Positions 33,001 through 42,000 of a stretch of 64,000 bases of DNA are shown here, one piece after another (the stretch's first letter is position 1; each line of letters starts with the position of its first letter). The position numbers are program-made. Where the stretch lies: positions 64,001-128,000 of the forward strand of contig CAVYRH010000008.1 in the NCBI GenBank assembly GCA_963770835.1, read 5' to 3'. Origin of the DNA: an uncultured Pseudomonadota bacterium. GTDB taxonomy: Bacteria; Oederibacteriota; Muellerivitia; Muellerivitales; Muellerivitaceae.

Positions 33001-36000
33001 GGATGGCTTTTCATTTGTTTCCTTCCCATTTCCGGGCCGAAGTTTCCTGGAGGTGAAGCCCGTTTTCCTTCTGGTCCATCAGGAAACAATCGGTGCAATC
33101 CAGGATATGGTCGGCGATGATTTCCCTTTCTTGCGCCGGCAATTTTCCGAGGATGTAGGCCTTGTATTTCTTTTTAACTTGTTCACAGTTCATGAAACAC
33201 CTCCGTTTTTAAACTGGACCCTTCCTTCTTTCGGGGCCGATGCGCTTTGGGTGATAAACCGGCTTATGCTGGAATCCCGGATGGACTTGAGGGCTTCCTC
33301 CTCGTCGATTCCATCGAGGCCCACTTCCACCCTCCACAAATCGGGGCGGATGCGGGACAGCACCTCCAGTAATTTCTTCCCGTCGATCTTAATTTCATCG
33401 TCATGGATGCTGATGTGGCAGTGAACCTCCCGGGCGATGCGGACTATGTCGGTCAAGGCCCAGGCGGGGAGCCCCGGTTTATTTTGGAGCGTTATTTTTT
33501 TTGACATTTTTTCCTCTTTTCCATGTTGGGGTTGGGAACGCGTCCGCGGATAGTTTCTTCCGGACGCGCAAAGAAAGGATCATCCCGGTGGATGACCCGG
33601 ATTTCGGAAAAAATCTCAGATTCGCAGGGGAATGGGGACGGTCGATGGAAAAGCCGTTCTTCCAAAAGAGGCGGGAGCCGCTTGTGCCGTCACGCGGAAA
33701 GCGAAAACGGAAAATGGGGAATTGGGAGACAATCGGGCGCAAGGCTTGAAATTGTTGAATTTATTCCCGGCTTGAAGGGATTGGCAGTTGAGCTGGCTTA
33801 AAAACCTCTTGCCGAAAGCCTGGCGGTTGGAACGGCGGAGGGTGTCTTGGGCGCCGTAATTACCGTTGGCGCGGACCATCACCATGGCCAGTTCCCGGCA
33901 GGCCAGGGGAAGCAGGGCGGCGGCCACGAGGAAAGCCAATAGGTTTTTCCGGGAAGAGGTTAACTTCGGCATATTTTCAAACCGTCCCTCCCTAAAAGGT
34001 GGAAGCCCCGGGGTGCGCCCGGCCGTGAGGCGCCGGTCATCCGGCCGCCATCGCTTTCACCGGTTTCCCGTTCGCCTGGAAGGCCTCCACCGATCCGTCT
34101 CGAAGGGTCAAGAGGACCTTTAAGCCCTTCCCCGACCCGGTGAACCGGACTCCTTTCACGCCGGTATCCAGGAAGAGGGGCTTGCCCCCGGTTTCCAGCA
34201 AAAAGGCGTCCCTTGTATCGCCGACCAGCTTCACCGTGCGGCTGTTGTCGTCGCTCTGGAAGAGAATCTCACCGGCGGCTTCTTTGGGGGCGGTATAGCT
34301 GGGGGTTTCGCCGGAACGGTTATAGGGCCCCGGCCCGCCCTGGGCCTGCGGTTCCTCGCCGTTATCCAGGGGCGGGTTGTTGTAACCGCCGTCACTGTTC
34401 GAAGGCACATATTGGCCGTTTTCATTGATATAAACCGTGTTGGTCGCGGGGTTGGGCCAGTTCCAGCACCCATTGTCCCAATAGTCCCAATTGCCGTACC
34501 AGGGGTCGTTCCACCAAAACTGGCCGCCATAATACTGGGTCCAAAAGCAGCCGCCGCCGCCGTACCAGCCGTACCAGTTGCAGCCGAACCCGTCGCAATA
34601 ATTGCAATAGTTCCACCCGTTGTAGCTATGCCAGAAGTATTGGTTGCGGTTGTTTTCGGCGGTACGGTTGAACCCGTTGAGCTGGGACTTGAAGTTCCGG
34701 TCCCCGGTAATGGAGTTCATTTGGTTGCGCACGAAGCCGGAGTTCATCTGGCGGGGCGAGAAGGCCGAGCCCGAAAGGCGCTGGCCGTAGGGGCCCCGGG
34801 AGGGCATCCGCGCCGAGGAACGCTGCATATTCCCCGGGAAGGACCGGCCGTTGGAGCGCCCGGTGAGGGAATTCCGGTTGAAGAACTGGGAACCCATGGA
34901 ACGGTTCCCGTTGAAGTTATTGCCGCGATAGTTCCGGTTGAAGCCGTTGGTGTTTCCATAAGCCCGGTTGAAAGACTGGTTCCGTCCTCCCCAAAAGCCC
35001 CGGTTGCCCCGGAAAGAAGACCCGTAATAGGAACGGGAACTTCCCCGGTAAAAGTTCCCAAAACCCCGGTTGCCGCCGCTGAAGCCCCCTCGAAAACCGC
35101 CTCCCCAGCCGCCATGGCCGCTCCAGGTGGAGTTGCCGTCGCTGAAACCCCCTCCGCCGCCACGGCTGCCGCCGCTGAAGCCCCCTCCGCCGCCCCCACG
35201 GCCGCCGCCCCCGCCCCCTCCGCCATGGGATGGCAAGGCCGCCGCCGGAAGCAACAAGGTCAGGGAAAAGATGAAGATTAGTTTTTTCATGTCGCACCGC
35301 CTAAAGGATTCGGGCCCTTCGTACCGTTCGGCCCCAATCCCACCTCTTACTGTTTGGACGTTCCAGCCTGTAAAAATAATTCCGCCTTAAACCCGCCCTT
35401 CTGGATTCGGAAAATTTTATTTTTGGATCTCACGGATTTTTTCGGTTTGTTTAAAAATCACTTCATCGAAAAGGGGAGACGCGGAATGATCCCTTGAAAA
35501 AAACACGGACAAGGAATCATCCGCGTCGGGCAATCAGTATTTCGGGGGAATTCTCAGATTCGTAACGGGGTAAGAACAGCGGCTGGAAAAGCCCCTTCCC
35601 CGAAAGCGGCGGGAGCCGCCTTTGCCGTGACCAACTCGGCAGAAAGGGACAAGGGGGTACGGGGGGAGAACCCGGTGCAAGGCTTGAAATTCGTGAATTT
35701 GTTCCCGGCTTGGAGGGATTGATTGTTGAGCTGGCTCAAAAACCTTTTGCCGAAGCACTGGCGGTTGGACTGGCGCAAATTATCTTGGGTGCTGTAACCG
35801 GCGTTGGAGCGGATAAGCACCATGACCAGCTCCCGGCAGGCCAGGGGGGGCAGCACGGAAAGGACTATTAAAACCAGCAGGTTTTTTTGAAAACCCGTTA
35901 ACTTCGTCATGATTTAACCCTACTCTTCCGCCCGGTAAGTTTCAAGGCCACTCCCGCGCGGCGGGCCACTCGAGACCACAAGTCGAGTGGGGTGGTTGCC

Positions 36001-39000: not shown

Positions 39001-42000
39001 AAATACACTAGTGCGGGGTTTGTCCGCGGAACATCAGCCACTCAATTTTGGGGAAGCCTCAAATGCGCAAGGGAGGAGCGGAACAACTGGGATGAACTGG
39101 TACAAACCGTGGATTAAATAAGGCGCCGTTTTTTTCATCCCCTTCCGGATTGGTGGGTTTTAAGGAAACCCTTGAATCCGAATAAGGCCTAGGGGGATTG
39201 TGGAATTTTGAATCGAATTCTTTGGCTTGGGCGTCAAGTAAATGAATCAGGGTTTTTCCAAAACGCCGGCCTTGGCCGGTGTTGGAAAAAGAAGCTTGTG
39301 AAAATAAGCGGGGACAGTGAAGGCTCAAGCTGAGAAGCTGCCGGCAGGCAAAGGGCATCAGGGTCGCCGCCAGGAGACCCGTTAGGAGAGTACGCCGTAA
39401 AAACACCCATCGTCCCATCCAGACACCCATCCTGCTTTACCCTTTTGTGGGAGCATTCATCAAAATAGTTTTCGACTCACGTTTTCACGCTGCCGGCCGG
39501 TGTACCGTCCGAATTGAAAGTCTCAAAAGTGCCGTCCTTGAAGATCAATAAAATCTTCGTCGGCCCGGTGCCGGTACTGGAAAATTTCACTTCCTGTACG
39601 TTGGTATCCAGGTAAACCGGCTTGCCGGAGGCTTTTGAGTTATTCAGGTCATAAAGAAAAGCGTCTCCTGTGGCCGAAACCGCCACCTTGACCTTTCCAT
39701 CCTGGCTCACAAAATCAATTGGTTCGTTGGAGGCGTTCGCGGCGGAACCGTTGGGCTCGATATTGTTCGTTAGCTTTTGTTCCTGGTTGTCCCCGTAAAC
39801 CGGGCCGCCGTAATCATCTTGGTTGTAGGCTGAGGAGCCGTTGCCGTTGCCGGCGGAACCGCCGGCGTTGCCGTCGCCCTGGGCCGGAGTATATTGGCCG
39901 TTGTTGTAGACGTAAACGTTCGTGGTCTCGGGGTTCTGCCACCACCAGTTATTACCGTACCAATAGTCCCAGTTTCCATACCAGGGGTCGTACCACCACC
40001 AATTGCCGGCGTAATACTGGCTCCAGAAGAACCCCCCGCCGCAGTTCCAGCCCCACCAGCAATTTCCGAAGCGGTCGTAGTAGTTGCAATAGTTATAGCC
40101 GTTCCAAGAGTGCCATAAATATTGGTTGGTCCTTCCGGCGATCGGGGTGGTGGCGGCGACTTTGGCCATGAAATTCCGGTTACCCGCGATGGCGGCCATT
40201 TGGGTCCGAATCGCGGGGCTGTTCATTCCGCGAGGGGAAACCACAGAAGAAGAAAAAGACCGGCCTGCGGGCCCTTGGCTGGGCAGCCCCGGCGCGGAAT
40301 GACTGAGATTGTGAGAAAGCATCGCCGAGGAAGACAGCGGCCGGGGAATGCTGGTCACTCCCATGCGTTGCAGGTTCTGCGGAACGACATTGGAATGATA
40401 AGTGTTGGAGCCGTTGTAACGGGAATTCGTGGAGAAATTGAAATGGTGGAAGGTCCCGCTTCCCTGGTAGGACCCATTGCCGCGGTAGCCGCGGTTGTAA
40501 TTGTAGGTGCGGCCTGAGGACCGGTAATAGGCCCTTCCATTGGAATAGTGTTGACCGTGATACACGGTGTCGTTGGAAGTGTTGGAACCGGTGGACCCTC
40601 CACCGCCGCCAGCATTACCGCCACCGCCACCCCCTCCGCTGTAACCACCACCGCCGCCGGCGTTGCCGCCACCGCCGCCCCCGGACAATCCCTCGTTATG
40701 GGCCCAAACCAACCCGTAAGGAATCAATGCCAGGATCACTACCACCATTATTGTCTTTTTCATGAAACCACCTCCGGTAAAGCCTTCCCCACGCCGTCTA
40801 CTTTGAAATCCTTACACTATTTTGACGTTTCAAAGGGGTAAAAAGGTCCCTGCCTAAGGGGCATAACAACAATCCGTCCCTCGAAACGCCGGTTTTAACC
40901 ATCCAACCAACACTCAATCCTCTGAAAATCGAATATATACTCAATTTTCAGTTTCTTCGGAAATGATCCCCTCCGCCGCATCCAATAATCTCAAGGGCTC
41001 AACACACAAGGGATAATCCGTATCGAAAAAAGCGCATCGGATGATCCCTTGGGAGCTGATTCCGTATATCGCCGGAACCGGAAGGACATAAAGGGTGTTG
41101 CCCGTGTATTCCCTTAAATGAATCCCCGCCCTTCGAAGAGTTTTCGGGTTGATCTGGAAAGCCAATCCGAACCTTCTCGTGACATCCATAATTCTATCGC
41201 AAAACAAGGGAAAGTTGAGGTGGTCCCGGTCCTCCGTCTCCTGGAGCTTTGCGGGTTCATCCGGCGAAACGGCGAGGACTTGGAATCCAAGACGGGCCAG
41301 GCGGGGCTCAATCCCGGCTAATTGCTCCAACTGTTCATTCGCGAAAGGAGACCATCCTCCCTGGTAAAAGAGGATGAAAGTACTCTTCCCGCGAACCAAT
41401 CCCTCGAAATCCACCGCTTTCCCATCAGTGGACCTTAAAGTCCCGAAAGGCAGGTCATCCCCGACGCCAAGTGGAACTACGGACTGGGGGCTATGGGCAA
41501 TCATCTTTTTCGGCTCCACCCCGCCCCACATTCCATCTCCATCCCTTGCCAGGGCCCCGTTGGCCACGCCCATGAAAACGAAAAGGAAGCAGGCCGTATA
41601 AATTTTTATTTTCATCCCAACCTCCCGGCCCCCGGACGAACCCGGCGTCGTTCCCCAAACCCTCCATTATTCATATTCAAAATCCGAACAATCTGTTTCA
41701 ACCCTGTCCGCTTTAGTTATTTTACCGCGTCGGACGTTCCGCCCCCTAAAAGGTACTTCTCCCCCATCGCCGATAAAAGTTGCGTTTTAGCCTCGGCCGT
41801 TTGAAGGCCGACGTTCACCATGTCTTTCAAGGCCTGCTGAAGGTCCGAAAGGGGCCCCAGGAAGGCCAGGTATCTCTGGCGGGCCAGGGCCGCGGCCTTT
41901 TGAGCCTGATCCTGTTCCACCGACAAGGTTGCCAGGTCCTCGCGGGCCTCTTGCATTTGTTCCAGGTAGCGGACGTTTAAGTCGTCCAAAACCAGCTGGT

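Follow-up and report, generated by a model that had tools for sequence, protein, structure and literature searches.

Leader ORFs ending in Leu-Arg-Ile-stop as likely stop-codon arrest peptides upstream of HPr paralogues, metal pumps and envelope protein genes

Why do small membrane-anchored ORFs with one and the same C-terminus stand repeatedly in front of genes as different as HPr paralogues and RND efflux pumps? The initial annotation named nine such ORFs in this genome and read them as nascent-chain arrest peptides gating the next gene. All nine were found at the stops named there, are 111-123 aa long and end in Leu-Arg-Ile-stop (LRI-stop). Five of them lie in the window, the whole 64,000-nucleotide stretch of DNA analysed here, where the leaders and associated features are as follows.

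32662..32940, minus strand: HPr paralogue, His15 and Ser46 both present; third in line behind leader 1
33011..33193, minus strand: zf-HC2 zinc-finger protein (PF13490), 60 aa, second gene behind leader 1
33190..33507, minus strand: HPr paralogue A (PF00381), Pro at the His15 and Lys at the Ser46 position
33564..33572, minus strand: conserved TT(Y)GCGY motif in the leader 1 spacer
33577..33598, minus strand: hairpin P2 of the leader 1 spacer, with a U-rich run behind it; scores terminator-like
33606..33614, minus strand: leader 1 anti-SD arm (+2 to +10 after the stop), predicted pairing partner of the RBS of 33190-33507
33616..33972, minus strand: leader 1, 118 aa, LRI-stop, subfamily HPrA
34037..35290, minus strand: secreted Gly-rich, Trp/Tyr-rich protein behind leader 2, no Pfam match
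35554..35910, minus strand: leader 2, 118 aa, LRI-stop, 64% identical to leader 1, 263-nt spacer
37205..37561, plus strand: leader 3, 118 aa, LRI-stop
37662..37835, plus strand: 57-aa membrane peptide directly 3' of leader 3, no Pfam match, orthologue in relative G001
38673..38933, minus strand: HPr paralogue B behind leader 4, Gln at the His15 position, Ser46 retained
38934..39058, minus strand: leader 4 spacer, predicted long-range helix from stop region to RBS; release of 6.5 kcal/mol, within the top 0.4% of controls
39059..39430, minus strand: leader 4, 123 aa, LRI-stop, subfamily HPrB
39477..40763, minus strand: Gly-rich secreted protein, the second of its kind, 46 nt upstream of leader 4
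46472..49705, minus strand: AcrB-family RND transporter (PF00873), first gene behind leader 5
49950..50294, minus strand: leader 5, 114 aa, LRI-stop, 244-nt spacer; beyond the 33190..39450 region annotated initially

All nine leaders start with a basic N-terminus, and each contains a hydrophobic stretch whose best 13-residue window has a Kyte-Doolittle mean of 1.84-2.81; the spacer to the next same-strand start measures 88-263 nt. Throughout the family the length is 97-126 aa with the hydropathy peak within the first 45 residues, and AlphaFold predicts for leader 1, at low confidence (pLDDT 61), helices at residues 3-38 and 51-70 and a disordered remainder. The LRI ending is over-represented, being carried by 8 of 253 short, free-standing ORFs with a hydrophobic N-terminus against 0.06 expected; the ninth leader falls narrowly below the hydropathy cut-off of that filter. 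It is also the commonest non-repeat ending, AGG being commoner but with 13 of 20 AGG-ending ORFs sharing their last 25 residues. None of 52 aligned leaders matched Pfam or NCBIfam at cut-off, nor the DUF2946 Pfam profile, and Rfam gave no match over the spacer at any of the nine loci. The nearest named look-alike clusters in the protein atlas were DUF6769, DUF8199 and CzcI, with 86-134 of 256 features shared.

The tail is the most constant part of these proteins. LRI-stop is present in 9/9 leaders of this genome, 80/82 intact copies in relatives and 69/70 library representatives, in a search biased toward LRI by profiles that contain the LRI columns. In the alignment of 52 leaders L, R and I are the sole invariant columns, while their codons and the stop codon vary synonymously, all six Leu and all six Arg codons being used; one TAG in the third leader set went against the expectation of no TAG stops. 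The leaders are under purifying selection, with a dN/dS of 0.27-0.28 overall and 0.17 in the last 12 codons (15 pairs). A DNA or RNA motif in place of a peptide was ruled out by the synonymous variation together with dN/dS, apart from a remaining codon bias: the Arg of LRI is encoded by AGA in 37/71 cases, compared with 6% within the bodies of the leaders and 12.7% close to ordinary stop codons, and a constraint at the RNA or codon level therefore also acts. No avoidance of LRI-stop is seen among ordinary genes, 4 of 2106 long ORFs ending in it against 0.5 expected, so LRI by itself is probably insufficient.

The same long genes bear on a different explanation, in which LRI-COOH marks the exported leader for removal, as a degron or PDZ-binding tail of the Prc/CtpA type, with ordinary termination opening the stem and coupling the two genes without a programmed stall. 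A free C-terminus would equally account for the invariant stop, an S41 protease is encoded in the genome, the variants LQI, LRL, FRI and LLI are found at similar places, and exported SecM is degraded by Prc according to the available part of PMC10502375. Such a tail has no need, however, for an invariant Arg or for fixed spacing in two subfamilies: the last conserved Cys lies 57-59 residues before the C-terminus in 22/24 metal-type leaders, as does a conserved hydrophobic residue in 18/19 HPr-type leaders. Moreover, the conserved Cys cluster implies regulation and not constitutive coupling. We regard this explanation as rather unlikely, although the degron and arrest roles of LRI could coexist.

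We favour, with a probability of roughly two in three, the reading that the LRI-stop leaders are translated and targeted for export and that ribosomes likely pause on the stop codon of each leader, which would hold open a helix predicted to hide the RBS and so likely switch on the next gene. The N-terminal signal is predicted from hydropathy and the AlphaFold model. The LRI end of the nascent chain would then pause the ribosome at the stop codon, the paused ribosome would cover the anti-SD arm after the stop and keep the predicted helix open, and genes for metal pumps, for envelope proteins and for HPr-like regulators of an unusual kind would likely be switched on through the freed RBS.

The helix carries much of this argument. 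The anti-SD pairing had earlier been considered non-significant over this genome's own loci; it is well supported in tests with swapped partners, held-out loci and 474 control gene pairs. The window +1 to +15 after the stop scored -10.15 against its own RBS, compared with -8.49 ± 0.29 in within-class permutations (47 loci, 0/20000); the corresponding values were -9.91 and -7.64 in the first held-out set (19 loci, p 5e-5) and -11.57 and -8.34 in the second (18 loci, 0/20000), p-values that overstate the case because the relatives are kin, with downstream starts partly picked by hand. Four other windows gave no cognate pairing excess in any of the three sets. Ensemble pairing with the RBS peaks at +2 to +13 (0.34-0.53), and helix P1 is 94.5% paired across 15 metal-type spacers. 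The footprint of a ribosome reaches to +10. Release of at least 5 kcal/mol by such a footprint was computed for 30/57 loci versus 1.9% of the 474 control gene pairs; leader 1 (7.7 kcal/mol) exceeds all of these controls. At leader 3 the predicted anti-SD sits in the leader's own last codons (-27 to -12; 3.7 kcal/mol), and release stays below 1 kcal/mol at three of the nine loci (contig C8 stops 99554, 132478 and 173571), including leader 2 with 0.5 kcal/mol and no anti-SD release. The predicted switch has its weakest support in HPr subfamily A, where no cognate pairing excess was seen (n=8, p=0.31); only 7/18 HPr loci release at least 5 kcal/mol.

Simulation of the terminating ribosome on the mRNA freed the RBS by at least 5 kcal/mol at 40/71 loci, whereas a ribosome at the upstream Pro-Pro (-9) did so at 3/71. 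This speaks against a CutF/RAPP-like elongation stall at a Pro-Pro 9-10 residues before the end with LRI as a passenger. The idea draws on SPP at -10/-9 in most metal-type leaders, on RPP/HPP tails before the same pumps in sister families and on the stalling of CutF at PPP in the available part of bioRxiv 10.1101/2025.02.05.636593. Nevertheless, PP is common only in the metal subfamily (last 15 residues: 34/70 genomic leaders, 35/70 library representatives, 2/9 in this genome), the last 15-16 residues of 36/70 leaders are devoid of it, R[AG]P[PG] occurs near the C-terminus in 0/70, and the invariant part is LRI and not PP. Thus we hold such a stall to be very unlikely. A RAPP leader does exist in the same genome, at C19:405841-406137, separate from the LRI leaders; used as a geometry control, it was predicted to be unpaired with its own RBS and so was uninformative.

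Returning to the stop-codon pause, the spacers hold further elements that raise the question of where it would act. The TT(Y)GCGY motif is found in 37/70 family spacers versus 24/1288 control intergenic stretches; a role as NusG pause was rejected, as TTNTTT is not enriched. The main output could be transcriptional, with the paused ribosome blocking an intrinsic terminator (P2 and U-run) or Rho loading, as in CruR (available part of PMC9426467). P2 behind leader 1 is terminator-like by score, P2 co-varies in 11/11 pairs, Rho is present in the genome, and the loci with 143-263-nt spacers are mostly without an anti-SD helix, several having C>G stretches (C>G without control comparison). Still, U-runs (15/70 spacers) and TTNTTT (14/70) do not exceed control intergenic DNA (19.6% and 18.9%), and the cognate anti-SD:SD co-variation at short-spacer loci would be left unexplained. 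As the main output this is distinctly unlikely; in the favoured reading, the same pause likely acts on transcription instead at those long-spacer loci that lack the helix.

The leaders could also be ordinary small exported proteins acting in trans as metal chaperones or HPr partners, the pairing being incidental. Their periplasmic parts are Cys/His-rich and a second helix is predicted. Against this, they are always first-upstream on the same strand and of near-fixed length, their C-terminal half is predicted to be disordered, and pairing is restricted to the post-stop window, so that we give the proposal hardly any credence. In the Cus-linked subfamily C24, C27 and C50 are invariant in 24 leaders; the Cys/His motif is not conserved in the HPr-linked and membrane-peptide-linked subfamilies.

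The first genes downstream encode HPr, OEP/RND and small membrane or secreted proteins, HPr accounting for 18/51 classified loci, about a third. As a correction, the gene right behind leader 3 is the 57-aa membrane peptide, followed from 37906 by a 217-aa protein without Pfam match. The two secreted Gly-rich proteins (34037-35290 and 39477-40763) are 41% identical over 280 columns, and leader 5 orthologues in relatives also precede the same RND gene. Crh-type HPr proteins are His-less. The subfamily B targets are Crh-like in lacking His15 and keeping Ser46, and HprK is present in the genome; subfamily A has lost both positions and is therefore not phosphorylatable at the canonical sites. The description of the targets as His-less holds for the three HPr paralogues directly behind leaders here and for 17/18 HPr targets overall, but His15 is retained in the HPr behind one leader of G014 and in that behind L046. 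"PTS-type regulators" was likewise too loose: Ser46 is kept only in subfamily B and in two of three subfamily C members.

An HPr-only search, independent of the leader profile, identified an intact LRI leader at 5/7 paralogue-type loci of relatives, the other two being at a contig end and with both genes broken, respectively; the other 21 HPr loci of relatives had no LRI leader. In the phylum search, leaders occurred in 27/30 genomes of the family and in the one genome of the other family in the order, with only weak partial matches in 7/67 other genomes. CusA/CzcA genes were checked for leaders in 40 upstream regions, 35 of them from outside the family: none showed an LRI leader, and four RPP/HPP leaders and one FRI leader were present. 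Three OEP genes on two Granulicella plasmids showed no leader in front of them. A related-locus search of genome contigs gave one locus. Among at least 120 matches listed in a metagenome pattern scan, which says little on range, one passed the filter and is a family member; one further incomplete candidate (L226) was recognised by eye and the others listed look like chance.

Precedents for the proposed mechanism are found in the available parts of PMC10987492, PMC13183943, PMC11890864 and PMC9973294. Motif-stop arrest peptides are likewise small uORFs with an N-terminal localisation signal and a short conserved pre-stop motif, and stall with the stop codon in the A site, as is proposed for the LRI leaders, which differ in a motif that is not Pro- or Lys-ending and in many paralogues per genome. 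Peptides monitoring Sec/YidC (SecM, MifM, CliM, motif-stop) share the predicted signal or transmembrane segment, the conserved C-terminal motif and a predicted SD-hiding stem in reach of the ribosome, but no LRI leader lies upstream of secA, secDF or yidC. As described in the available part of PMC13183943, C. difficile CliM has an N-terminal hydrophobic segment, an SD-hiding stem and conserved spacing, and arrests termination through its penultimate residue, for which an LRI counterpart is proposed; CliM keeps a PTC-distal KYxIW and regulates yidC, whereas LRI leaders keep a PTC-proximal triplet and have other targets. CutF, CutF-like and CruR (DUF2946) leaders, as far as the available sections of PMC9973294 and PMC9426467 go, resemble the LRI leaders in being shorter than 150 aa, in carrying an export signal, in a fixed distance from sensor to tail, in the anti-SD stem and in OEP/RND neighbours, and resemble the Cus-linked ones also in the Cys/His cluster. 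In length (<150 aa), signal and a same-strand neighbour no more than 1000 nt away, the LRI leaders agree with the CutF-like rules of PMC9973294, and the Cus-linked ones fit where PP is present; unlike CutF/CruR in those sections, they have no DUF2946 or RAPP, half are without PP, the anti-SD is reachable from the stop only and a metal motif is missing from most subfamilies. RAPP/RGPP leaders before non-Sec genes also have diverse targets, among which HPr was not found in the available part of PMC12992588; R[AG]P[PG] sets them apart from LRI leaders. In PepNL (Ile13; PMC11890864) and ErmDL (Arg; PMC13183943), according to the parts available, the penultimate side chain blocks the A site or the RF2 GGQ loop, and this chemistry is the one proposed for LRI; both are short, cytoplasmic and without export signal, and ErmDL is macrolide-dependent. 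LudP was discarded as a relative, the motif in the available part of the preprint being unrelated. "LRI" does not occur in the main texts of PMC10987492, PMC13183943, PMC9973294, PMC9426467, PMC12992588, PMC11890864 or 10.1101/2025.02.05.636593, and none of 7 checked among 12 xLRI occurrences in the available supplements of PMC10987492 is C-terminal.

Hence the initial interpretation stands on several points: the leaders code for protein and carry an export signal, the LRI in front of their stop is invariant, and the predicted SD-hiding helix is one that only a stop-positioned ribosome would open. The "new arrest-peptide class" was overstated, since signal-bearing motif-stop peptides, CliM, CutF-like metal leaders and leaders before non-Sec genes are known; the novelty lies in the LRI motif itself, in the presence of nine paralogues within a single genome and in HPr paralogues as targets. 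More speculatively, and at odds we would put well short of even, a single termination-arrest cassette built of signal, exchangeable sensor, LRI-stop, anti-SD, hairpin and GCG motif may have taken the place of the RPP-type leaders found in sister families. Through duplication it may have become a toolkit of the whole lineage, by which translation of metal pumps, envelope proteins and HPr regulators that cannot be phosphorylated responds to protein export and to the state of the envelope. The cassette would then be the fixed version of a broader, so far undescribed L-x-I-stop arrest family that extends to Nitrospirota at least. Should the favoured reading be true, the combination of a signal, 95-125 aa, L-x-I-stop and a post-stop anti-SD would serve as a search rule for leaders overlooked by gene callers and PP/RAPP filters. 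An arrest motif of three residues that depends on the stop and comes in about 90 natural variants would make directly testable how the final nascent-chain residues block release factors, and one genome would employ the same arrest module up to nine times over as a modular sensor, with targets including HPr paralogues, which were not found in the available parts of the arrest-peptide literature compared.

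Scanning the whole genome in six frames gave 17 ORFs with 50 codons or more that end in Leu-Arg-Ile (LRI), among them all nine 111-123-aa ORFs named as leaders in the initial annotation. Five of these lie in the window:

33616-33972, minus strand: leader 1
35554-35910, minus strand: leader 2
37205-37561, plus strand: leader 3
39059-39430, minus strand: leader 4
49950-50294, minus strand: leader 5

The excess of this ending among short anchor-bearing ORFs was reproduced: of 253 free-standing short ORFs whose N-terminus is hydrophobic, 8 end in LRI where 0.06 would be expected; the ninth own leader fell below the hydropathy cut-off. 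The family is also Pfam-less as proposed, 0/52 aligned leaders matching Pfam or NCBIfam at cut-off. Leader length is kept within 97-126 aa, the spacer to the next gene measures 88-263 nt, and the stop codon is TGA or TAA in 69/69 leaders of the first two sets, with a single TAG in the third. The genome also carries 13 short ORFs with a hydrophobic N-terminus and identical last 25 residues (AGG end), a repeated element.

A profile built on 15 leaders returned 58 matches, own copies aside, across 30 family genomes; 14 weak partial matches were left out, and 43 of the 44 inspected end in LRI-stop, the sole miss being a non-homologue (E=0.2). With a 52-member profile 24 further places were inspected: 20 held intact leaders (18 ending in LRI, one in LRL, one in LQI), one held a pseudogene, one was a non-homologue and 2 were duplicates. 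A third profile added 19/19 leaders with LRI (2 contig-edge matches not included), and in a library of 1.84 billion proteins LRI ends 69/70 matches, all of these counts being biased by the LRI columns that the search profiles include. The library exception resembles a single leader over 80 residues, after which the two part in a frameshift-like manner. An HPr-based search, independent of the profile, found intact LRI leaders at 5/7 paralogue-type loci and at 0/21 other HPr loci. Joint decay was seen at one locus (L119, G001:C175:2825-3510), where both the leader and its HPr carry stop codons. Over 15 disjoint pairs, dN/dS was 0.27 at the start, 0.28 in the middle and 0.17 in the last 12 codons.

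Grouped by first downstream gene, the 51 loci classified include 23 of the metal type, which precede a CusC-like OEP or a small secreted protein; an HPr follows in 18, a small membrane peptide in 6 and another gene in 4. Later sets bring further targets, including AcrB-type RND. OmpA and OmpH/Skp are encoded in the operon at the leader on contig C4. The description of the HPr targets as His-less held for 17/18 paralogues directly behind a leader, while one keeps His15. Ser46 is kept in 7/7 paralogues of subfamily B and missing in 8/8 of subfamily A, and the genome encodes HprK. We take HPr B to be Crh-like; HPr A, judging from its residues, would be able to act only by binding. Behind leader 1 the operon encodes HPr A, then a zf-HC2 protein, then an HPr that keeps its His. 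The genome has at least eight genes of the HPr family, five of them with His15, including one in a sulfate-transport-like operon on contig C2. Other genes near the window leaders are:

34037-35290 and 39477-40763, minus strand: secreted paralogues without Pfam match, 41% identical, with a Gly-rich N-half and a Trp/Tyr/Cys-rich domain, each directly upstream of an LRI leader
37662-37835, plus strand: member of a membrane-peptide family (also L003, L080, L106, L109) of 50-165 aa, whose members share a single N-terminal membrane segment and differ in their tails
37906-38559, plus strand: MNFY-starting protein of ~217 aa without Pfam match, recurrent in leader/HPr/zf-HC2 operons (L045, L063, L069, L075, L118)
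43195-49705, minus strand: two tandem AcrB-family genes, with OEP and AhpC/TSA genes downstream; no adaptor gene between the two in the ORF list

Leaders 1 and 4 probably act within longer transcripts, since they start 64 and 46 nt behind the Gly-rich paralogues. The membrane peptides come first behind the leaders of a whole subfamily, often with a lipoprotein next, and could be second-tier regulators. Elsewhere, L107 (G014:C7:175400-189000) holds four leader cassettes within 14 kb, alongside genes for HPr and AHSA1/START-like proteins; one of these units has a duplicate on C12. A 532-539-aa protein forms a further target class behind the leaders of L361 and L364.

The 15 nucleotides after the leader stop (+1 to +15) pair with the RBS of their own downstream gene at a mean of -10.15 kcal/mol, compared with -7.55 when RBSs were swapped among all loci and -8.49 within subfamilies (47 loci, spacers up to 200 nt; 0/20000 permutations). 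Windows at -29, -14, +16 and +31 showed no excess in the same test, and across the structure ensemble the RBS pairs most strongly with +2 to +13. Two held-out sets agree (19 loci, p 5e-5; 18 loci, 0/20000), which overturns the weak significance first attached to this anti-SD pairing. Kinship among the loci and the choice of some starts by hand mean that the p-values overstate the case; positional specificity and replication stand nonetheless. By class, p was <5e-5 for metal, 0.014 for membrane peptide, 0.04 for HPrB, 0.31 for HPrA and 0.016 for all HPr. The reading as leaders that act in cis through an anti-SD switch placed after the stop is well supported, and trans-acting proteins are a highly improbable alternative. 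In 15 metal-type spacers P1, the long-range helix predicted to hide the RBS, is 94.5% paired but shows a single two-sided change, and the inner hairpin, P2, co-varies at 11/11 pairs. The motif TT(Y)GCGY follows P2 in 37/70 family spacers versus 24/1288 controls, and no Rfam family was found across a spacer in 9 loci. A mainly transcriptional output through P2 or Rho appears unlikely.

A terminating ribosome was modelled as blocking the mRNA up to +10, the limit of its footprint. This lowered the cost of opening the RBS by at least 5 kcal/mol in 30/57 loci versus 1.9% of 474 control gene pairs; the release was 7.7, 6.5 and 3.7 kcal/mol for leaders 1, 4 and 3, and below 1 kcal/mol at three own loci. 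In this model a ribosome at termination would free the RBS in 40/71 loci and one at Pro-Pro in only 3/71, and a stall at Pro-Pro is quite unlikely. Translation arrest at LRI-stop is likely; the penultimate Arg would block the release factor, a chemistry that we infer from CliM, ErmDL and PepNL. CliM blocks the release factor by its penultimate side chain, a penultimate Arg of ErmDL has the like role (PMC13183943), and PepNL is a further precedent (PMC11890864). Against arrest count the weak HPrA pairing, the LRI ending of 4/2106 long genes (0.5 expected) and the skew of the Arg codon toward AGA; a Prc-type degron combined with ordinary coupling is a doubtful alternative.

The last conserved Cys lies 57-59 residues before the end in 22/24 metal-type leaders. 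In HPr-type leaders the QL motif has a conserved hydrophobic residue at this same distance in 18/19, within a helix (51-70) predicted at low confidence. This distance approximates the ribosome tunnel plus translocon, so that the conserved segment would emerge just beyond the membrane as the ribosome reaches the stop. Fixed spacing of a like kind is described for CruR (PMC9426467).

Signal-bearing leaders stalling at a motif-stop are already known (PMC10987492), as are CutF-like leaders ahead of OEP/RND (PMC9973294), arrest leaders ahead of non-Sec genes (PMC12992588) and CliM (PMC13183943). The LRI leaders would resemble all of these in working mode, and the CutF-like rule holds in part for the metal subfamily; by membership tests they fall outside DUF2946, the RAPP family and the sec/yidC-linked groups. 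The LRI motif was not found in seven main texts from the arrest-peptide and metal-leader literature nor in the supplement rows covered, though the logos and lists of PMC9973294 or closed journals may contain it.

By profile search the family occurs in 27/30 family genomes and, with an LQI ending, in the order's one other family. An ordinary RAPP-ending leader of 98 aa (G000:C19:405841-406137, plus strand) precedes an 820-aa TonB-receptor-like gene (labelled by eye), its spacer likewise containing a hairpin followed by GCG. CutF-like leaders with WQPP, RPP, LLN and VLLI tails stand ahead of metal pumps at L307, L308 (Spirosoma pSLIN01), L252 (Methylobacter plasmid), L260 and L309 (Ca. Manganitrophus plasmid). 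Other families of the phylum have RPP/HPP leaders ahead of their Cus pumps, and a family member's genome has an extra GGPP-containing leader that ends in FRI, ahead of an OEP/RND operon (L349, G015:C23:1700-7400). Suggestive cases beyond the phylum are an incomplete Cys/His ORF on a metagenome contig, with an SPP...VLRI end and a post-stop anti-SD, and, on Ca. Manganitrophus plasmids (Nitrospirota), a VLLI-ending ORF and an error-ridden QI-ending ORF, both ahead of TolC genes; the nearest unnamed atlas clusters, from Acidobacteriota, Nitrospirota and Bacteroidota, are leads only. From these few cases, LRI looks like the lineage-fixed form of a broader tail that follows a decayed RPP.
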